Under the pieces are notes generated by a model. The model had not been told where the DNA came from. It saw nothing but the letters and a program-made list of their open reading frames with translations, and made no database searches. From Candidatus Aenigmarchaeota archaeon LH_S7 (lineage in GTDB: Archaea > Aenigmatarchaeota > Aenigmatarchaeia > QMZS01): DNA of 64,000 nucleotides. The position numbers and the translations under genes are program-made. The DNA lies in contig JAGXOL010000001.1 in assembly GCA_023659895.1 (NCBI GenBank), positions 15,757 through 79,756 of the forward strand, read 5' to 3'. Shown here in pieces: positions 8,043 to 60,718 of this stretch. The first letter of the stretch is position 1; every line of letters starts with the position of its first letter.

Positions 8043-8154
8043 GCTGGGGTGGCAGAGTCAGGTTAATGCGGTGGACTCGAGATCCACTGGACCTAGTCCG
8101 CGCAGGTAGGTTTTTCTTGAAGAAAATCCCTGTAATCAAATCCTGCCCCCAGCG
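8043..8154 (+). tRNA. tRNA-Ser(CGA), class II, with a 28-nt intron in the T-loop (8108-8135, after T54)
   Basis: Acceptor GCTGGGG/CCCCAGC, 3-bp D-stem, anticodon arm GTGGA-CTCGAGA-TCCAC, variable hairpin GGAC-CTA-GTCC, T-stem GCAGG/CCTGC with loop split T|...|TCAAAT; exons total 84 nt. Confidence 0.7.
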
Positions 8155-22373: not shown

Positions 22374-22394
22374 TTTTTTCTTTTTTATAAATCA

Positions 22395-23585
22395 AAGGCA
22401 AGAAAACTCCCGAATTTATTCGTAGAGATGAATTGCCCTTAAATAGTTTAAAAACATAATTAAATATGGTTAGAGTCAGAAAAACAATTAAATGTAAAAT
22501 AATAAAACCAACAGAGTTAAAATTAAAACATTTAAACAAAGAATATAATAATGTCCAAGAACTGCTACAATTAGAATCTAAAGGAATTGAATTTCTGCCA
22601 ATCTTTCATTCTCTAAAGAAAAAAGTTTATTCTGCTAACTTACAACAGGCTTTAAGATTTTACAAGAAGATTAAACCAAATAAAGAATATCCAATATCCT
22701 TTAGAAAGGATTTGTTAGAAGTCAGGAAAACAGATAACAAACTATCTAAATATTGGGTTAAAATACCTACTAAACAAAGAAAAGGTGGTTTAAAATTAGC
22801 AATTAAATCACAACCTTTTAATTTTAAGGATTATGAGATTTGTGAATCCAAACTATTTAAAAAGAAAAATAATTGGTTTTTAAATCTAACAGTTCAAAAG
22901 GAAGTTGAACTGAATAATACTTATGACTCTGTTCTTAGTCTTGATTTGGGACAGAAGTATATGGGCGTATCAGTGATGCATCCATCTACTTTAATGATTC
23001 CTAAATTCTACGGCAAAGAAGTCAGAGGAATAAGAAGAAACTACGACTATATTAGGAAGCAACTTGGCAAAAATAAACTACTTAAAGAAATAAAAAGATT
23101 TGGACAGAAAGAGCAAAGAAAAGTAACTGATTGTCTCCATAAAATCTCTAATGAAATAGTGGATTTGGCTCTAACCAGTAATTCTACTATTGTTGTTGGA
23201 GACCTGAAAGGGATTAGAAAATCAGCAAAAGGTAAAGGTAGAAAGTTCAATAGGATTGTTTCAAATATGCCTTATCTGGAGTTAATTCAAATGCTTGAAT
23301 ACAAAGCAAATTGGGAAGGAATAAGGGTAATTAAAGTAAATGAAAGAGGAACAAGTCATACCTGCTCCAAATGTGGTAATGAAGGTTCAAGACCAAAGCA
23401 GGGAGTTTTCAATTGTTCTGTTTGTGGATTAAAAGACTATAATGCAGATGTGAATGGTGCTTCTAATATAGGTAATAAATTGTCTTCTGGGTATATCTTG
23501 GAAGATGGGGCAACCTTGACTTTGCCCGAAACTGATGTATATGAGACATCAGAATCTTCTGACTTTAGTCGTGGAGAATGTCAAA
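22395..23585 (+). mobile_element. IS200/IS605-family TnpB-only (IS1341-like) element, copy 1
   Basis: About 70 nt left end and about 40 nt right end plus ORF are about 90% identical to copy at 34509-35689; left-end hairpin GGCAA...TTGCC. Confidence 0.7.
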
Positions 23586-23590
23586 AATAA
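22466..23590 (+). CDS. tnpB: TnpB (OrfB) RNA-guided nuclease-family transposase-associated protein
   Basis: 374 aa; RuvC-like motifs and C-terminal zinc finger CSKCG...CSVCG...NADVNGASNI. Confidence 0.8.
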   Translation: MVRVRKTIKCKIIKPTELKLKHLNKEYNNVQELLQLESKGIEFLPIFHSLKKKVYSANLQQALRFYKKIKPNKEYPISFRKDLLEVRKTDNKLSKYWVKIPTKQRKGGLKLAIKSQPFNFKDYEICESKLFKKKNNWFLNLTVQKEVELNNTYDSVLSLDLGQKYMGVSVMHPSTLMIPKFYGKEVRGIRRNYDYIRKQLGKNKLLKEIKRFGQKEQRKVTDCLHKISNEIVDLALTSNSTIVVGDLKGIRKSAKGKGRKFNRIVSNMPYLELIQMLEYKANWEGIRVIKVNERGTSHTCSKCGNEGSRPKQGVFNCSVCGLKDYNADVNGASNIGNKLSSGYILEDGATLTLPETDVYETSESSDFSRGECQK

Positions 23591-24237
23591 TGCTCTACGT
23601 AATAAATTTTAAAACCTATGAACAAGCCACAGGTACAAACAGTATAAGATTGGCTAACATAATCTCTGAAATAAAAAATAAATTAGAGGCAGACATACTC
23701 GCAAGCCCACAAATTGCTGATTTGGAAAAAATAAGCAAGATAACACCTTCCTTGGCACAGCATGTTGATCCTATTAATTATGGTTCTCACACAGGTCATG
23801 TCTTGTCGCAATCAATAAAAGAAGCTGGTGCACAAGGTAGTTTAATAAATCATTCTGAAAGAAAACTTTCTCTGGAGAAAATAAAATCTTGTATTGATAA
23901 ACTGAAATCTCTTGAAATGAAATCAATCTGTTGTGCAGGTGATTTGAAAGAAGCAATGGAAATAGCAAAGTTTGCTCCTGATTACATAGCTTATGAGGAC
24001 CCTGAGTTGATAGGCAGTGGAAAGTCAATTTCTAAGTACAAGCCAGATAACATTGAAAGATTTGTTAGTGTTTTGAAGGATATAAATTCTGAGATTATTC
24101 CTCTTTGTGGTGCTGGTATTTCAACTAAGGATGATGTAGAATCTTCCAAGAAATTAGGTGCTAAAGGTGTTTTAGTTGCTTCTGCAGTTGTTAAGGTAGA
24201 AAATCAAAGAGAAGCTTTGTTGAATTTGATTTCTTAA
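23590..24237 (+). CDS. tpiA: triosephosphate isomerase (archaeal type); alternative start at 23578
   Basis: INFKTYEQATG, HVDPINYGSHTGH, CGAGIST motifs; start overlaps tnpB stop (TAATG). Confidence 0.85.
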   Translation: MLYVINFKTYEQATGTNSIRLANIISEIKNKLEADILASPQIADLEKISKITPSLAQHVDPINYGSHTGHVLSQSIKEAGAQGSLINHSERKLSLEKIKSCIDKLKSLEMKSICCAGDLKEAMEIAKFAPDYIAYEDPELIGSGKSISKYKPDNIERFVSVLKDINSEIIPLCGAGISTKDDVESSKKLGAKGVLVASAVVKVENQREALLNLIS

Positions 24238-24268
24238 TTATTTAATTTTAACAGTCTAATTATTTTAT

Positions 24269-24603
24269 AGCCCCGTCGTCTAGTGGCCAAATTCTTCTTT
24301 CTTTAGAAAAAAAGAAGCTTTTGATAGGAAGAAAGAAAAGGAAGGCTAAACTCCCGTTTTGGATGGAACCTTCCTCATAAACCTTGGGTTTATGGGGCCC
24401 CGAAAAACAAGTTTTTCGAGGTTTTAAAAAGGTTCCAGGGTTATGGATGCTGGCCTTTGGATATCAAAGGTTGGAGAAGCTAAAAAATTATTTTGGCTTC
24501 TATGATAGAAGACAGCCAGAGACCGCGGTTCGAATGGAACATCAAAAAGATAAAATTTACCAAATCCAAAAGAAAATAAGTTTCGGGAATCCGCGCGGGG
24601 CTA
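24269..24603 (+). tRNA. tRNA-Gln(UUG) interrupted by three introns: D-loop 24287-24440 (154 nt), anticodon loop 24461-24513 (53 nt), T-loop 24536-24590 (55 nt)
   Basis: Exons AGCCCCG-TC-GTCT-AGTGG | TTAT-GGAT-G-CTGGC-CTTTGG | A-GCCAG-AGAC-CGCGG-TTCGAAT | CCGCG-CGGGGCT-A sum to 73 nt; A1:U72 and anticodon loop CUUUGGA as in archaeal tRNA-Gln. Confidence 0.65.
24378..24437. repeat. conserved about 55-nt hairpin element, copy 1 (inside tRNA-Gln intron 1)
   Basis: GGTTTATGGGGCCCCGAAAAACAAGTTTTTCGAGGTTTTAAAAAGGTTCCA about 90% identical to 28705-28763; internal stem CGAAAAAC/GTTTTTCG. Confidence 0.5.
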
Positions 24604-24956
24604 TTAAATGTGACTTCCTCTCCCTGAATAAATTCAGGAGCTTCCTTAACCAAAACACTGTTTTGAATACAGAAGGCTGGCGAGGTTCTAAAGTCACTAA
24701 CAAAACTTACTATAGCAGAGGTTTTGGTCTGACACGCTTTAGTTTAGGGCTGAGTCACCTTTTTCAGATGCCTTATTTCACTATTGTAGGGTCAGCAACC
24801 CCGTCTTCCAAGATATACCCAGAAGACAATACAGGACATGTCCGTCCATATTTAATTATGTTTTAAAAGTATTAAAGGACAATTGAGCTACACGATTTAA
24901 ATCAGGAGTTTTCTTGCCTTTGGTTAAATATAAATAATTTAAAACAAAATAATTTT

Positions 24957-25808
24957 ATGAAGAAAGGTGTTAGCTCAGTAATGAGTATTATTTTATTAGT
25001 TGTTGTGGGAACCTCTTTGTCAGGTGTGGCTTATCATACTTATACTTCTATGACTAAGGATATTATTTCTGTTCAGGAAAAGCAGATAATAGGTGAGTTA
25101 GAGTTAGAAGAGTCAAAGGTAAGAATAGAAAAGGTTGGATATTGTAGTGTTAATATTAGGAATGTGGGAGACAATGATATAGATGTTAGTTCTTTAGAGG
25201 TTTATATAAATGATAAACATTTTAAAATTCCTACTACAGAAAATATTTTAGAAAAAAATGAGAACATCAGAATTAAGATAACTAGAGATATGTTGTCTGA
25301 TTTGGAAGCAGATATTTCTTTAAAAGTTGGAGGAAAAGTTAATGATATTGGAAGAATTATCTGTCCAATTCCAGTAAATGGTACCTTAAGAAAAAATAAT
25401 TGCAAGTCTGATGAAGTTTGTGTAATTGCTTTTTCTGCTCTTAATAATTCCCATGTTGAAGATTGTTCAGAAGGAAATTATCTTTATAAATTGTGTGTAG
25501 ATAATATTAATAATGTAACGATTACTTCTTCTGATTGTTCTGATGAAGAAGGTAGTCTTATTACTATGTCAGGGAATACAAATGCTCAAGTTGAGGAATA
25601 TCATTTACCTATAACAGGTTTTGCAACCAAGAAAAATGTTTGTATAAATTCTTCTTTAGGAGATGTAAATTGTATTTATGGTAATTGTTCGTCAAGTTAT
25701 TATAATCCGCTTTTTTCAATTTCAAACTTAACAATTTCAGAGTCAGCAAACGCTCATGTAGGAGATAAAGAGCACTATAACAAAGTAGTTTGCTGTAGGA
25801 TTCAATAA
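24957..25808 (+). CDS. secreted Cys-rich protein with archaeal type IV pilin-like (class III) signal peptide
   Basis: N-term MKKGVSSVMSIILLVVVGTSLSG; about 20 Cys in C-terminal two thirds. Confidence 0.4.
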   Translation: MKKGVSSVMSIILLVVVGTSLSGVAYHTYTSMTKDIISVQEKQIIGELELEESKVRIEKVGYCSVNIRNVGDNDIDVSSLEVYINDKHFKIPTTENILEKNENIRIKITRDMLSDLEADISLKVGGKVNDIGRIICPIPVNGTLRKNNCKSDEVCVIAFSALNNSHVEDCSEGNYLYKLCVDNINNVTITSSDCSDEEGSLITMSGNTNAQVEEYHLPITGFATKKNVCINSSLGDVNCIYGNCSSSYYNPLFSISNLTISESANAHVGDKEHYNKVVCCRIQ

Positions 25809-28233: not shown

Positions 28234-28671
28234 TTAGTGAGGGGAGAGTGTCAATTTTTTCTGTTCTTTTTCTACTACTGCTTTTTTTTCTCCAGAGGGT
28301 TTTTTGATTGTTCCACCAGCTTTGCTTATTTTTTCCTCAACTGTTTTGCTCCATTTATCCGCAATTATTTCAACTTTTTTATTTAACTCTCCTTCTCCAA
28401 GAAGTTTCATATATCCAAGTTCTTTTAAATTGATTTTGTTTCCTTTGAATTTTTCCAAATCCTTCAAGTTAATTACTTTTTCTTCTCCTTCCTTCTTCAA
28501 GGTTCTGTGAACAAAGTAATTAGGATTTTCTTTTAAGGTCTTAAAAATCTTGTGAGTTTTTGAGCCAGCCATTCCACTACCTCCTTTGTTACCTTTTCCT
28601 CTGTGCCTTTTTTTGCGGCCATAGCCACAGCTCCTTGAACCACGCATCTTCTGAGTTTTAGTTTTTCCCAT
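28234..28671 (-). CDS. rpl15: ribosomal protein L15 (uL15)
   Basis: MRGSRSCGYGRKKRHRGKGNKGGSGMAGS glycine/basic N-terminus of uL15. Confidence 0.8.
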   Translation of the reverse strand: MGKTKTQKMRGSRSCGYGRKKRHRGKGNKGGSGMAGSKTHKIFKTLKENPNYFVHRTLKKEGEEKVINLKDLEKFKGNKINLKELGYMKLLGEGELNKKVEIIADKWSKTVEEKISKAGGTIKKPSGEKKAVVEKEQKKLTLSPH

Positions 28672-28704: not shown

Positions 28705-28763
28705 TCTACCGAAGGTTTATGGGGCCCGAAAACAAAGTTTTTCGAGGTTTCTAAAGGCTTCCA
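28705..28763. repeat. conserved about 55-nt hairpin element, copy 2 (between PIN-ATPase-KH gene end and rpl15 start)
   Basis: GGTTTATGGGGCCCGAAAACAAAGTTTTTCGAGGTTTCTAAAGGCTTCCA, homolog of 24378-24437. Confidence 0.5.
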
Positions 28764-28765
28764 AA

Positions 28766-30400
28766 TCACTTCTCAAGAATGTCTATATGAATCCCTAATC
28801 TATCTTCTAATTTGTCTATCTTTTTCCCTCTCTTCCCAATCAATTTAGGGATTGCTTCTTTGCTGATATAAATTTTAACCTTGTTACTAGAAACAAATTC
28901 TATTTTAGCTCTTGGGTCATATCTTTCAATTTCCCTTAGGACTTGTTCTCTTGCTAATTTTTCCACACCTGAATCTTCTTTCTCTTTCTCCTCAATAGGT
29001 ACAACAATTGTTTCCTCCCCATAGCTGTAGATCTCATATTCCAGTTTTCCTGTTTCAAATGAGTGGACTTCAACTAGAGGACGTGCTAAATCAGCTTCCT
29101 GCATCCCTGATGGAACTCTTACCTGCAGATTCAAGGAGTAAATTTCTTTTATTTCCCCATCCTCAACAAAGATTATTGTGTCTATAATGTTTTGTAACAT
29201 TCCTAGTTCAACCTTTCTTATGAATCTTTGTATTGCATCAATAGGATGGGAAGCATGAATTACACCTATCATTCCAACCCCAGCAAGCCGTAAATCACTA
29301 AAAACCCTAAAATCATAAGAAGTGCGGATTTCATCAAAGATTGTGTAATCAGGTCTAACCAACAACAGGATGTCCGCGGTTTTACCAAAATCCTTTAGCA
29401 AAGGAGCGTATTGAGTTATTTTTTTATCCACCTGCAAGTCCCTAGGACTTTCCATAGTCTTGACTACTTTATTCTTTTTGAGATAAAATTCTGCCATAGA
29501 AGCTGCTAGAGTTGATTTTCCACTTCCAGGAGGACCTGAAATTAAAATTCCCTCTGCTTTCTTTTCAACCCTTTCTTTCAATTTATCAGAAAGTTTGTAA
29601 TCATCTAAATCTAATTTTGCAATTGGTCTTATAATAGTTATTTCTTCCACACTTGAGAAGGGGGGTCTTGTAATAGAAATTCTCATGTCCCTAATTTGCA
29701 AGACCATTGCCCCGTGTTCTTCAAACTCAACAAATCCATATTCTTCCCTTCTCGCTTCTGTTAAAATATTTCTTGACAAACTTTCAAACTCATCTTTAGT
29801 TAGTTCCTCTTTTCTTAGTTTTTCAAGTCTTATTTTACCTGGCTTACCTCTTTTTGCCAGGGGGACACAATTGACTTTGAAATGGAGGGACATTGTGTTT
29901 TCCGTTAAAAAAGGAAGGAACTCAAGTTTCTGCTTCTCCTTTTCAACTTCCAAATATTGGACTTTTATATTATATACCTCAGCCACCAATGCTTGCACAA
30001 GGTCTCTTGTATACAAAACAGCTTTGTATTTCTTTGCTACATCCCTTATCATTGAATCTATGCTACCAGATTTAGCTAACTTAATTTCCTCCATGGTGGC
30101 TTTCCTTCCAACAAACTGCACTTTTATTTTCCTGTTGTTCAATTCTTTTATTTCCTCTAACCCAAGAAATCCTATTTCCTTACCTTTGTTCGCTTGTGCT
30201 TGCAGTTCATCAACAACAACTTCAGGAATTATAACTTTTATGTTTTTCAATTCTCCGCGATCTATTAATTCTGTAAGTTTTTTGGAGATTAGTATGCTTG
30301 TGTCAGGGACTATCTTTTTTTCTTTTGTGTTTTTATTTTGTTCAGTTTTAGCACTCTCTCTACTCTTTTTCTTAGTTGTTTCTTCTTTCTTTTTAATCAT
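28766..30400 (-). CDS. PIN-domain / P-loop ATPase / KH-domain protein (COG1855 family)
   Basis: N-term PIN (IVPDTSILI), Walker A ILISGPPGSGKSTLA, C-terminal KH (LIGKRGKKIDKLEDRLGI). Confidence 0.75.
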   Translation of the reverse strand: MIKKKEETTKKKSRESAKTEQNKNTKEKKIVPDTSILISKKLTELIDRGELKNIKVIIPEVVVDELQAQANKGKEIGFLGLEEIKELNNRKIKVQFVGRKATMEEIKLAKSGSIDSMIRDVAKKYKAVLYTRDLVQALVAEVYNIKVQYLEVEKEKQKLEFLPFLTENTMSLHFKVNCVPLAKRGKPGKIRLEKLRKEELTKDEFESLSRNILTEARREEYGFVEFEEHGAMVLQIRDMRISITRPPFSSVEEITIIRPIAKLDLDDYKLSDKLKERVEKKAEGILISGPPGSGKSTLAASMAEFYLKKNKVVKTMESPRDLQVDKKITQYAPLLKDFGKTADILLLVRPDYTIFDEIRTSYDFRVFSDLRLAGVGMIGVIHASHPIDAIQRFIRKVELGMLQNIIDTIIFVEDGEIKEIYSLNLQVRVPSGMQEADLARPLVEVHSFETGKLEYEIYSYGEETIVVPIEEKEKEDSGVEKLAREQVLREIERYDPRAKIEFVSSNKVKIYISKEAIPKLIGKRGKKIDKLEDRLGIHIDILEK

Positions 30401-34387: not shown

Positions 34388-34508
34388 AATTTATAAATCT
34401 AATTAATATTAATAGCTTTCTATAAAATTAGTTAGACCCTTTTTGGAACTTCCTTTGTTTCTTTAGTTTTAATTTGTAGTTATCTCTTGTCCTTCTTTTA
34501 TAATTAAA

Positions 34509-35689
34509 AAAGGCAAGAAAACTCCCAAATCGTGTAGAGGATTTGCCCTTAAATAATTTAAAAACATAATTAAATATGGTCTGTGTTAGAAAAACGATTA
34601 AATGCAAGATAATAAAGCCAACAGAGTTAAAGTTGAATCAATTAAACAAAGAAAATAACAATATTCAAGAACTGCTACAATTAGAAAAATTTGGTTTAGA
34701 TTTTCTACCTATTTACAATTCTCTTAAAAAGAAGGTTTATTCTGCAAATATACAACAAGCCTTAAGATTTTATAAAAAGATTAAATTAGATAAAGAATAT
34801 CCAATATCCTTTAGAAAAGATTTGTTAGAGATTAGGAAAACAGATAACAAACTTTCAGAGTATTGGGTTAAAATACCTACTAAACAAAGAAAAGGTGGAC
34901 TAAAGTTAGCAATTAAATCACAACCTTTTCTCTTTGAAGATTATGAGATTTGTGAATCTAAATTATTTAAAAAGAAAAATAATTGGTTTTTAAACCTAAC
35001 AGTTCAAAAAGAAGTTGAACTGAATAATACTTATTCCTCTGTTCTCGGTCTTGATTTGGGACAGAAGTATATGGGAGTATCGGTGATGCAACCATCTGCT
35101 TTAATGACTCCTAAATTCTACGGCAAAGAAGTCAGAGGAATAAGAAGAAAATACGACTATATTAGAAAGCAACTTGGTGAAAAGAAACTGCTTAAAGAAA
35201 TAAAAAGGTTTGGACAGAAGGAGCAAAGAAAAGTAACTGATTGTCTCCATAAAATCTCTAATGAAATAGTAGATTTGGCTCTAACCAGTAATTCTACTAT
35301 TGTTGTTGGAGACCTGAAAGGGATTAGAAAATCAGCGAAAGGCAGAAACTTCAATAGAATAATCTCAAATATGCCTTATTATCAATTAACACAAATGCTC
35401 GAATACAAAGCAAATTGGAGTGGGATAAGAGTGGTTAAAGTGAATGAAAGGGGAACAAGTCATACTTGTTGTAAATGTAGTTCTAAAGGTTCAAGACCAA
35501 AACAAGGAGTTTTCAATTGTTCTGTTTGTGGACTAAAAGACTACAATGCTGACATAAATGGTGCTACTAATATAGGTAATAAAGTGTCTTCTGGGTATAT
35601 CTTGGAAGATGGGGCAACATTGACTTTGCCCGAAACTGGTGCAATATGACATCAGAATCTCTTGACTTTAGTGATGGGAGAGGGTCAAA
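34509..35689 (+). mobile_element. IS200/IS605-family TnpB-only element, copy 2
   Basis: Homologous ends and ORF to copy 1; conserved sequence continues about 40 nt past tnpB stop (candidate omega/reRNA and right end). Confidence 0.7.
34576..35649 (+). CDS. tnpB: TnpB (OrfB) family protein, paralog of 22466-23590
   Basis: 357 aa, about 90% aa identity to copy 1; zinc finger CCKCS...CSVCG. Confidence 0.8.
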   Translation: MVCVRKTIKCKIIKPTELKLNQLNKENNNIQELLQLEKFGLDFLPIYNSLKKKVYSANIQQALRFYKKIKLDKEYPISFRKDLLEIRKTDNKLSEYWVKIPTKQRKGGLKLAIKSQPFLFEDYEICESKLFKKKNNWFLNLTVQKEVELNNTYSSVLGLDLGQKYMGVSVMQPSALMTPKFYGKEVRGIRRKYDYIRKQLGEKKLLKEIKRFGQKEQRKVTDCLHKISNEIVDLALTSNSTIVVGDLKGIRKSAKGRNFNRIISNMPYYQLTQMLEYKANWSGIRVVKVNERGTSHTCCKCSSKGSRPKQGVFNCSVCGLKDYNADINGATNIGNKVSSGYILEDGATLTLPETGAI

Positions 35690-51127: not shown

Positions 51128-51227
51128 TCTAGATCTTAACAATTTATTGTTTAGAGGACAATGGCATGATACAGCCCTGCCACGGCTGTGACCCGGGTTC
51201 GAATCCCGGCCAACGCAGAACAATTTT
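51128..51227 (+). tRNA. tRNA-Gly(GCC) with about 28 nt of insertion(s) between D-stem 5' strand and anticodon stem (51141-51181 region)
   Basis: GCGTTGG-TG-GTCT...CAGCC-CTGCCAC-GGCTG-TGAC-CCGGG-TTCGAAT-CCCGG-CCAACGC-A; D region is 41 nt instead of about 13. Confidence 0.65.
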
Positions 51228-51309: not shown

Positions 51310-51574
51310 GGGGTTGTGGTGTAACCTGGCAGCACTGCTGGCTCCAGTGGAATCTTTTTCTTTAAAAAAGAAAAACCTTCCAGTCAAAAAGAAATAGATT
51401 CCCTTCAGTCAAAAAGAAAATGGAGTTATGACGCTTCGCGGATGAATGAAGAAACCAGCCAATCCCGGTTCAAATGGAACTTTTAGAAAAAGTTCCATCA
51501 AAACAAGCTTTTAAAAAAGCTTGAGCAAAAAAGGAACCTTTTCTAAAAAGATTCTGAAAATCCGGGCAACCCCA
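51310..51574 (+). tRNA. tRNA-Trp(CCA) with two introns: canonical 37/38 (51348-51453, 106 nt) and T-loop (about 51476-51561, 86 nt)
   Basis: Exons GGGGTTG-TG-GTGT-AACCTGGCA-GCAC-T-GCTGG-CTCCAG | A-CCAGC-CAAT-CCCGG-TTCAAAT | CCGGG-CAACCCC-A give a 73-nt cloverleaf. Confidence 0.7.
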
Positions 51575-51682
51575 GGAGATTTTTGGAGCTTCCACTTCCA
51601 TAAAAACCTCCAGCCAAAACCTGATTAATAGGAAAGGTTGCATCCAGAAAAAGAAACATATTTTTAATATTATAATTATATT

Positions 51683-59410: not shown

Positions 59411-60718
59411 TCATTCAACTACTACAGGTAGTCTTTGTGAGACACCTCTTATAAGTTTTTTAATTTGGTCTAAATCCTGCTCTATATCATTTATCCTCTT
59501 TTCTAAAGGCTCTATTTCCGGCTCTCTCACAGATTTTATTCTCTCTTCAATATCTTTTTTCAACTCATCAAACTTGCTTTCAGGAACATATCCTGTAACT
59601 TTTTCGTTTATTATATGTATTAATTTATTCATCTCCTCATCAATCTTGTTAGGTACTGTTTCACTTTCCATCTTATTAATTCTTTTTTCCAAACTCCCTA
59701 TCTTATTGCTGCTTATATCTTCAAGATGATTCTTAAAAGTATCTACCTCTTTTTTCATCTCCTCATCAATCTTGTTAGGCACTGTTTCACTTTCCATCTT
59801 ATTAATTCTTTTTTCCAGACTCCCTATCTTATTGCTGCTTATATCCTCAACATGATTCTTAAAAGTATCTACCTCTTTTTTCATCCCTGAAATTTGACCT
59901 TTTATATCTTTAGATAATTCTTCATATTTTTTTTCATTTTCCTCCAGTCTTTTTGATATCATTGAGAATTCTTCAATATCCTTGTCAAAATATTTTTCCT
60001 TTTCTTTTAACCTCTCTATTGCTGACATTACTACCTCTCTCAACTCCAAGTACCTATTCTTGTTCTTTTCAAATTCGTTAGCAAAGGCCTTCCATTCTCC
60101 GTACTTTTTCTCAAACTCATCAGCGGATTGTTTTATTTTTCTGAATTCATTTTTAAAGTCTTTCATCTCTTTCAATTCTCCCTGTTCTTTGTGAATTCTT
60201 TCAACCTGATAATCTACTTTTTTCTTGAACTCTTCCATTTCTTTGCCCATGCCATCAACCTTTTGTTCTAGATCTTTTTTATTTCCTTGAATTTCTTTCT
60301 TCAGATTCCCAATTTGTTTAATATCTTTTTCTCCTTCTAGTTTCTCTAATCGTTTTTTCAGATTATCTATTTGGTTGTTTATATCACTTTTTATATTTTG
60401 TACGTTCCCATCAGCCTCTTCAATGCTCTTACTTATATTGTTTATACCCTGTGAATTCCTTTCAACAGTACTTAATTTGTTCTCATATTTTTTTACAGTT
60501 TCTTTGAGGTCTTTTAATTCCTTTACTTCATCAACATCGTTTTTTAAATTATCTAGGTTTTCTTTCATCTCATTTATCCTTTGATTCAGCTTGCCTTTTG
60601 CTTCTTTGTCTTTCTCAAGTTTATCCAACCTATCATCATATCTGGCCAGAATCTTTTCTATCTGTAGAAAGTTTACTTTAAATTTTTCCTTTAATTGCTC
60701 AAAATTATTATCTGCCAT
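59411..60718 (-). CDS. long coiled-coil protein with 42-aa tandem repeat
   Basis: 435 aa, near-continuous heptads; KEVDTFKNH(V/L)EDISSNKIGSLEKRINKMESETVPNKIDEEM repeated. Confidence 0.5.
   Translation of the reverse strand: MADNNFEQLKEKFKVNFLQIEKILARYDDRLDKLEKDKEAKGKLNQRINEMKENLDNLKNDVDEVKELKDLKETVKKYENKLSTVERNSQGINNISKSIEEADGNVQNIKSDINNQIDNLKKRLEKLEGEKDIKQIGNLKKEIQGNKKDLEQKVDGMGKEMEEFKKKVDYQVERIHKEQGELKEMKDFKNEFRKIKQSADEFEKKYGEWKAFANEFEKNKNRYLELREVVMSAIERLKEKEKYFDKDIEEFSMISKRLEENEKKYEELSKDIKGQISGMKKEVDTFKNHVEDISSNKIGSLEKRINKMESETVPNKIDEEMKKEVDTFKNHLEDISSNKIGSLEKRINKMESETVPNKIDEEMNKLIHIINEKVTGYVPESKFDELKKDIEERIKSVREPEIEPLEKRINDIEQDLDQIKKLIRGVSQRLPVVVE
59631..59882. repeat. 2 x 126-bp near-identical tandem duplication inside coiled-coil gene
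   Basis: Unit atctcctcatcaatcttgttagg(t/c)actgtttcactttccatcttattaattcttttttcca...atctacctcttttttc repeated with 3-4 mismatches. Confidence 0.8.

Follow-up and report, generated by a model that had tools for sequence, protein, structure and literature searches.

An archaeal tRNA-Gln(UUG) gene with three predicted introns, including a 154-nt D-loop intron that may hold two tandem splicing units

At positions 24269–24603 on the forward strand of the window (the whole 64,000-nt stretch of DNA analyzed here), G+C-rich blocks alternate with A/T-rich stretches in the sequence as read, just downstream of a gene encoding a TIM protein (23578–24237; Pfam TIM). This interval is a tRNA-Gln(UUG) gene carrying three insertions of 154, 53, and 55 nt. 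Joined, its exons form a 73-nt cloverleaf with an A1:U72 pair, the anticodon loop CUUUGGA, and discriminator A, which ARAGORN calls as tRNA-Gln(ttg). G+C content is 66% in the exons, 27–38% in the introns, and 31.5% over the whole window. Run on the raw window, ARAGORN and Rfam give no match at 24269 and return only tRNA-Gly at 51145–51216 and an intron-containing tRNA at 8043–8154. The locus is very probably the functional tRNA-Gln(UUG) ortholog of a low-G+C DPANN archaeon, with three protein-spliced introns. Its parts, with the predicted junctions, are as follows.

24238–24251 (+): A/T-rich TATA-like box read from the sequence, a putative archaeal promoter, centered ~26 nt upstream of tRNA position 1
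24269–24290 (+): exon 1, 22 nt; acceptor 5′ strand, D-stem 5′ strand, and the full D-loop AGUGGCCAA, its last nucleotide being A21
24291–24444 (+): intron 1, 154 nt, at the noncanonical position 21/22 in the D-loop; relaxed bulge–helix–bulge (BHB) motif
24445–24460 (+): exon 2, 16 nt; D-stem 3′ strand, G26, anticodon-stem 5′ strand, and C32–G37 with the anticodon UUG
24461–24513 (+): intron 2, 53 nt, at the canonical position 37/38; strict hBHBh′ motif
24514–24534 (+): exon 3, 21 nt; A38, anticodon-stem 3′ strand, AGAC variable region, T-stem 5′ strand, and UUCGAA to position 59
24535–24589 (+): intron 3, 55 nt, at the noncanonical position 59/60 in the T-loop; hBHBh′ motif with a weak h′
24590–24603 (+): exon 4, 14 nt; U60, T-stem 3′ strand, acceptor 3′ strand, and discriminator A73, with CCA not encoded

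Contigs that encode TIM proteins 67–81% identical to that of the window keep the gene order, and a tRNA-Gln(UUG) gene follows TIM in each (L120 and L123–L127). These syntenic genes differ in the number and placement of their introns.

L124: one intron, at 37/38
L125: two introns, at 37/38 and 59/60
L127: two introns, at 37/38 and 53/54
L123: three introns, at 15/16, 37/38, and 59/60
L126, 1003–1387: three introns, at 21/22 (118 nt), 37/38 (45 nt), and 53/54 (149 nt); at 385 nt, the gene is longer than that of the window
L120, 10680–10948 (equal to L121 and L122; three independent assemblies): four introns, at 15/16 (~46 nt), 21/22 (57 nt), 37/38 (43 nt), and 59/60 (50 nt)

The window exons are identical at 73 of 73 positions to those of L120 (whose TIM protein is 81% identical to that of the window), L124, and L125; exon 2 has the same sequence in these three and in L123. 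Between lineages the introns are unalignable except at the splice-site flanks, and selection therefore acts on exons and junctions. In L120, a 6-nt micro-exon, UGGCCA (mature positions 16–21), lies between the introns at 15/16 and 21/22. Upstream, the window gene and L120 have the block TTAATTAYTTAATTTTAACAGTYTAATTATTTTAT in common, and the box at 24238–24251 is a putative promoter by analogy with the usual archaeal promoter geometry.

The same comparison fixes the junctions of intron 1. Because the D-arm of L124 and L125, AGTGGCCAAGGATG, is uninterrupted and no other junction pair reproduces its sequence, exon 1 ends at 24290 and exon 2 begins at 24445. Spliced alignment to intronless references likewise places the intron after mature index 22, i.e., after AGTGGCCAA, and exon 1 agrees with AGTGGYYAA, the D-loop consensus of 61 intronless DPANN tRNA-Gln genes. 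The original prediction had proposed a tRNA-Gln(UUG) with insertions in the D-loop, at 37/38, and in the T-loop; the spliced ARAGORN call and the orthologs bear this out, the spliced sequence has the acceptor pair, anticodon loop, and discriminator it had described, and its 53-nt intron at 37/38 is exact. Its exon lengths of 18+20+22+13 nt were wrong and are corrected here to 22+16+21+14 nt. It had the length of the D-loop intron right, but the junction, drawn as AGTGG|...|TTATGGATG, was misplaced by 4 nt where intronless and orthologous genes read AGTGGCCAA-GGATG, and the mature D-loop first read was wrong for that reason: Junctions at 24286|24287 and 24440|24441 leave only two of four central-helix pairs and yield a D-loop, AGUGGUUAU-GGAU, found in no homolog. 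The T-loop intron, too, retains its predicted 55 nt but not its register, since 60/61 gives two of four central-helix pairs and the splice motif selects 59/60.

Splice sites were read with a BHB geometry in which a 4-bp central helix (H) lies just 5′ of each bulge and the cut follows the second bulge nucleotide; the anticodon–intron pair 32:(n−2) served as a check. A strict scan of 24200–24700 yields few hBHBh′ motifs, introns 2 and 3 among them, with all four H pairs formed in both. Intron 2 combines a 5-bp outer helix h (CUGGC/GCCAG), H CUUU/GAAG, bulges GG|A and AC|A, and a 5-bp h′ (UAUCA/UGAUA). Intron 3 uses the 5-bp T-stem as h, with H UUCG/CGGG, bulges AA|U and AA|U, and a weak h′ of 3 bp; of its five sequence-equivalent registers, only 59/60 gives four of four H pairs. 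Because ~40 strict matches arise among the ~118,000 junction pairs scanned, the motif alone is weak evidence, but matches at junctions dictated by the exons are not chance. The top-scoring match of the scan, 24452–24607, is incompatible with a tRNA and was rejected.

Conservation across relatives points the same way. In all seven orthologs, every intron has one register with four of four central-helix pairs and 3-nt bulges (the helix of the L120 15/16 intron was read by eye, not by the register script). At 37/38, 94% of cells across the seven orthologs are paired, vs. 19–49% in slid controls; three pairs are changed on both sides, two both-sided changes lie in h′, and the intron strand of H reads GAAG, AAGG, or AAAG. 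At 59/60, present in four orthologs, the intron strand of H reads CGGG, UGAG, CGAA, or UGGA and always pairs with UUCG, with one-sided changes in three of four H pairs. Here h and H are 100% paired and h′ only 50%, so this is effectively an hBH-type site. No Rfam intron family matches 24200–25000 at E up to 10, and insertions of 53–154 nt are too short for group I or II introns; self-splicing of either type is therefore not indicated.

A scan of one genome per species with the first 18 nt of the gene, AGCCCCGTCGTCTAGTGG, recovered at least 119 DPANN tRNA-Gln loci. Among the matches listed, nearly all titles are DPANN or unclassified archaeal metagenome-assembled genomes (MAGs): Micrarchaeota, Woesearchaeota, Aenigmatarchaeota, Nanoarchaeota, and Iainarchaeota. 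The same listed matches include 61 uninterrupted 72-nt genes with the D-arm GTCT-AGTGGYYAA-GGAY and 113 homologs with a recognizable 3′ end, which divide into 63 without introns, 33 with one, 14 with two, and 3 with three. Of their introns, which form clusters, 18 belong to the D region, 33 lie around 37/38, and 14 belong to the T region; those of the D region span 13–83 nt. A distant homolog, L050, is interrupted at the same three positions as the window gene, by introns of 83, 71, and 74 nt. The novelty implied by the original prediction was thus overstated, as ~44% of the 113 DPANN homologs sampled carry one to three introns in these three regions. The 154-nt intron 1 is nevertheless the largest of the ~20 D-region introns seen among the loci compared. 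The tRNA pattern of the clade has no match in the metagenome scan.

The phylum assignment in this analysis follows from TIM homologs at 64–65% identity that carry the name Candidatus Aenigmatarchaeota. In a more distant lineage, where TIM is 65% identical (L129–L131), a different tRNA, probably tRNA-Arg(TCG) with a T-loop intron, follows it at ~2149–2400 (−), and the D-arm region of L129 holds an extra insertion compared with L130 and L131. Separately, a tRNA-Gln homolog on an Aenigmatarchaeota MAG contig (L063; JBDRJK010000012.1, ~2005–2491) has an apparent T-loop insertion of 414 nt, far above the usual size of BHB introns.

Intron 1 is the unusual part of the gene. With junctions at 24290|24291 and 24444|24445, its central helix is GGCC/GGUU (four of four pairs) and its bulges are AA|A and AU|G. 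This helix and the 3′ end GGGTTAW|GGAT recur at 21/22 in L120 (an intron of 57 nt) and in L126 (one of 118 nt), and the remainder of the three introns is unalignable. A candidate second 3′ splice half lies inside the window intron and would divide it into two parts.

24291–24349 (+): sub-unit I_A, 59 nt; a hairpin with its own 3′ splice half (GGCU, then AA|A)
24350–24444 (+): sub-unit I_B, 95 nt; a three-way junction with P1 GGAACCUU/AAGGUUCC and two hairpins, and the ancestral-type 3′ half GGUU AU|G

The BHB motif of I_A has the central helix GGCC/GGCU (four of four pairs; GGCU at 24344–24347), bulges AA|A and AA|A, and no outer helix h. Its h′ has five contiguous pairs and nine more past a 2-nt bulge, in a hairpin that starts at the second intron nucleotide, and it is the only strong h′ among the six candidate GGYY tetramers. 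In partition-function folding with introns 2 and 3 removed, the pairing probability of GGCC/GGCU is 0.63–0.65 and that of GGCC/GGUU is 0.035; the latter rises to ~0.7 once I_A is removed in silico. I_B folds at −33.7 kcal/mol (z = −3.0 vs. shuffles). The most likely reading of these models, held with moderate confidence, is that the 154-nt insertion comprises two tandem BHB units with a common 5′ splice site that would be removed in order. A nested 78-nt strict motif at 24364–24441 was treated as a chance match, because the remainder could not be spliced to the right product.

Several observations weigh against the explanation given here for the locus. The motif of intron 1 as a whole is weak, with one pair in h and two in h′, so that it matches only the relaxed form, and GGCC has six potential GGYY partners within the intron; what defines the 3′ site is therefore ortholog comparison rather than structure. 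The GGCC/GGUU helix provides no covariation, since all three genomes with a 21/22 intron have it unchanged. The minimum-energy fold of the I_B-containing intermediate has the nucleotides of the 3′ junction paired, not bulged, and the case for ordered splicing comes solely from thermodynamic folding of naked RNA.

The strongest competitor, to which we give a little under even chances, holds that intron 1 is a single 154-nt intron removed by EndA in one step through GGCC/GGUU, the I_A hairpin and the I_B junction being internal decorations inserted into it. The 3′ end and helix shared with the shorter introns of L120 and L126 suggest just such an expanded ancestral intron, and with either helix forced on the exon 1–intron 1–exon 2 RNA, the two conformers are equally stable (−59.9 kcal/mol for GGCC/GGUU vs. 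−59.7 kcal/mol for GGCC/GGCU). Against one-step removal, GGCC pairs with the internal GGCU ~18 times more often than with GGUU, and the GGCU site offers a full 5′ bulge, a 4-bp helix, a strong h′, and AAA at the 3′ bulge, where a relaxed-motif endonuclease would be expected to cut.

Under the tandem-unit reading, maturation would proceed as follows; transcription, splicing, and the junctions are predictions from the sequence. A ~335-nt precursor would be transcribed from the A/T-rich promoter just downstream of the TIM gene. EndA would cut in the two 3-nt bulges of the BHB motifs, as in the archaeal protein-only pathway, and an RtcB-type RNA ligase would join the exons and probably circularize the introns. 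Within intron 1, I_A would be excised first through GGCC/GGCU, with the 5′ site GGCC AA|A; the religated junction would then let GGCC pair with GGUU at the end of I_B, which would be excised second. Removal of 24291–24444, 24461–24513, and 24535–24589 would leave the 73-nt tRNA AGCCCCGUCGUCUAGUGGCCAAGGAUGCUGGCCUUUGGAGCCAGAGACCGCGGUUCGAAUCCGCGCGGGGCUA.

I_B also contains a repeated element of ~55 nt, which the original prediction had placed inside the D-loop intron and upstream of rpl15; the searches below establish that it is real. Two copies are present.

24381–24439 (+): copy 1; half of hairpin 1, the hairpin CGAAAAA-CAAG-UUUUUCG, a U/A-rich tail, and the right arm of P1
28708–28764 (+): copy 2; between the 3′ end of a PIN/KH ATPase gene (28766–30400, −) and the promoter of rpl15 (28234–28671, −)

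The 38-nt core is 92% identical between 24387–24424 and 28714–28750 (blastn-short, E = 1e-6), and a two-sequence profile (nhmmer, E = 3.7e-18) extends the copies to the limits above. Searched with this profile, the window and 133 fetched loci yield no further copy, and the element has no match in the metagenome scan, the viral contig scan, or phage BLAST. Both copies have, in the same orientation, the hairpin CGAAAA(A)-loop-UUUUUCG with flanking G/C and U/A-rich runs. In the intron, GGAACCUU/AAGGUUCC closes the three-way junction to which copy 1 belongs; the fold of the rpl15 copy is different, with no significant stability on either strand (z = −1.7 on the plus strand and 0.0 on the minus). 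An 8-bp inverted repeat, GGAACCTT/AAGGTTCC, and TGGATG on both sides (24360–24365 and 24444–24449) occur at the intron copy only. The rpl15 spacer measures 94 nt in the window vs. 56 nt in L124, which has no element. No splice motif surrounds the rpl15 copy, and the idea that it is an intron of something else was rejected.

Most likely, the element is a lineage-specific duplicated or mobile segment, tolerated in the intron and probably a passenger that splicing would not need. A more elaborate form of the tandem-unit reading is a tentative proposal and less likely than not: The order of I_A before I_B would be fixed, because excision of I_A would restore the 5′ motif half that I_B needs; the gene would effectively be a four-intron gene like L120, where the four are separate; and the 55-nt module would mark DNA-level mobility of intron-borne sequence into non-tRNA sites.

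Also less likely than not is that the element is a miniature mobile element, similar to a miniature inverted-repeat transposable element (MITE), that entered the D-loop intron and the site upstream of rpl15 in separate events, so that I_B would largely be the insertion. Both sites are longer than in relatives without the element (the intron 154 vs. 57 nt in L120, besides the rpl15 spacer), and the intron copy is bracketed by its inverted repeat with TGGATG on both sides, resembling a target duplication. Such an element would, however, be represented by two copies only, with none in the fetched loci or in the metagenome and viral scans; copy 2 lacks the left inverted repeat, the right TGGATG is not flush with the inverted repeat, and the element has no similarity to the ends of the TnpB elements described below.

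We regard as improbable a third account, in which the element functions as an RNA module, either a small RNA or a hairpin that binds protein, freed from a spliced, circularized intron much as the euryarchaeal tRNA-Trp intron carries a C/D box RNA, with a second gene copy upstream of rpl15. The hairpin kept in both copies in one orientation and the stability of I_B relative to shuffles favor it, as does the circularization of archaeal tRNA introns and their capacity to carry guide RNAs, as described in PMC12558985 (citing Clouet d'Orval 2001). Its difficulties are that the nearest relatives have no such element, that the rpl15 copy folds no better than shuffles suggest and in another shape, and that the expected motifs are missing: No Rfam family matches the introns or the rpl15-upstream copy, and 24291–24444 contains no C box (up to one mismatch) and no CUGA. 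A C/D box guide RNA in intron 1 was rejected for want of these motifs.

Least probable, and very unlikely, is that the gene is dead, disrupted by mobile or repeated DNA while the real tRNA-Gln lies elsewhere (the disrupted pseudo-tRNA that the original prediction had named as its refutation): Its insertion-sequence-rich surroundings (a TnpB element at 22378–23585 and a decayed inverted fragment at 24799–24937, ~195 nt past the tRNA 3′ end) and an intron 1 that pairs a weak splice motif with a repeat also present outside tRNA genes would suit such a history, but it is contradicted by complete exon identity to orthologs at 67–81% TIM identity despite flanks that have diverged and introns diverged beyond alignment, by insertions that each lie in register with four of four central-helix pairs and 3-nt bulges, by introns at the same positions in relatives and in distant DPANN lineages, by the lack of any second AGCCCCG...CGGGGCT gene in the 64-kb window, and by the A/T-rich box near −26 conserved with L120.

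The mobile DNA near the gene belongs to a TnpB-only insertion sequence, present as two 87%-identical copies at 22378–23585 and 34493–35689 (+), with a 374-aa open reading frame (ORF) bearing a Cas12f1-like TNB domain. The first copy lies between a 120-aa ORF and TIM and is absent from the syntenic L120. A decayed, internally deleted inverted copy survives as fragments at 24799–24830 and 24846–24937 (−) and lies in the spacer from the tRNA-Gln 3′ end to the next gene, which is ~350 nt long in the window and ~36 nt in L120. Elsewhere, two tandem 126-nt direct repeats at 59624–59875 are 96% identical.

Noncanonical introns occur in three of the four tRNA genes seen in the window. In a second multi-intron tRNA at 51311–51575 (+), probably tRNA-Val(GAC), both the anticodon loop and the T-loop carry long insertions. 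The T-loop intron starts GGAACTTTTAGAAAAAGTTCCATCAAAA, a stretch of 28 nt that recurs unchanged in the T-loop intron of the L123 tRNA-Gln and suggests intron exchange among tRNA genes; the start is also partly shared with intron 3 of the window tRNA-Gln (GGAAC...ATCAAAAA). At 8043–8154 (+), a tRNA-Ser(CGA) has a T-loop insertion of ~28 nt, and its Rfam tRNA match spans 112 nt.

The gene type and the EndA/ligase mechanism are already established. Thermoproteales tRNA genes carry up to three EndA-type introns at canonical and noncanonical positions, three being the stated archaeal maximum (PMC8450103, PMC4033280), and the window gene matches that number. It resembles the multi-intron genes found there with SPLITS and tRNAscan-SE (Sugahara 2007/2008) in having D-loop, 37/38, and T-loop introns, in mixing strict and relaxed BHB motifs, and in being of a kind that standard finders miss. 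Unlike those TACK hyperthermophiles, its lineage is DPANN, Aenigmarchaeota-like, and of 31.5% G+C, and its D-loop intron is much longer, apparently with two tandem units on one 5′ site. An order of removal has a precedent in principle: In some archaeal tRNAs one intron must go before the next BHB can form (tRNAscan-SE 2.0 paper, PMC8450103).

Within DPANN, frequent tRNA gene disruption and broad-specificity EndA variants are reported, with epsilon2 in ARMAN/Micrarchaeota and alpha4 with an L3 loop in other members (PMC3239211, PMC5829648). The window gene shares with these systems the superphylum and the frequent noncanonical and multiple introns, although the papers in question analyzed no Aenigmarchaeota tRNA gene. 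A close counterpart of intron 1 is found in Methanopyrus kandleri pre-tRNA-Glu(UUC), which also has a canonical 37/38 intron together with one in the D-loop, located at A21 or beside it. That D-loop intron is a relaxed HBh′ form, with a good 5′ bulge, H, and h′ and a degenerate 3′ bulge, and the canonical intron is removed first in vitro (PMC5829648). M. kandleri is, however, a euryarchaeon, and its tRNA has two introns, the D-loop one short, whereas the window gene has three.

Two further comparisons concern the repeated modules. Intron transposition in Thermoproteales, as summarized in PMC4033280 (Fujishima 2010), places similar introns in different tRNA species, as do the 28 nt shared here by tRNA-Val and the L123 tRNA-Gln; the model as outlined in that source does not extend to the 55-nt repeat, one copy of which lies in an intron and the other in an intergenic site away from tRNA genes. 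The tRNA-Trp intron with a C/D box guide RNA (Haloferax, Pyrococcus) is likewise long (~100 nt) and structured with an extra module, but intron 1 has no C/D motifs, sits at a noncanonical position, and carries a module not conserved in relatives. What goes beyond the routine is the size and apparent two-unit build of the D-loop intron, the repeat shared with a non-tRNA site, and the 28 nt common to the tRNA-Val and L123 tRNA-Gln introns. In addition, the ortholog L120 of a sister lineage, with four introns as predicted from its sequence, is above the limit of three that the literature gives for an archaeal tRNA gene.

Incomplete DPANN tRNA sets have been taken to point to undetected disrupted genes (PMC3239211, PMC5829648), and the present analysis recovers a tRNA-Gln(UUG) missed by standard finders, a recognized cause of such seemingly incomplete sets. 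Syntenic orthologs with one, two, three, and four introns and identical exons offer a compact natural experiment on intron gain and loss outside the Thermoproteales. The apparently composite D-loop intron is a substrate for testing whether splicing is ordered and how far DPANN endonucleases tolerate relaxed motifs. If the more elaborate tandem-unit reading is true, the gene would provide a traceable example of archaeal tRNA intron gain and expansion in DPANN genomes.

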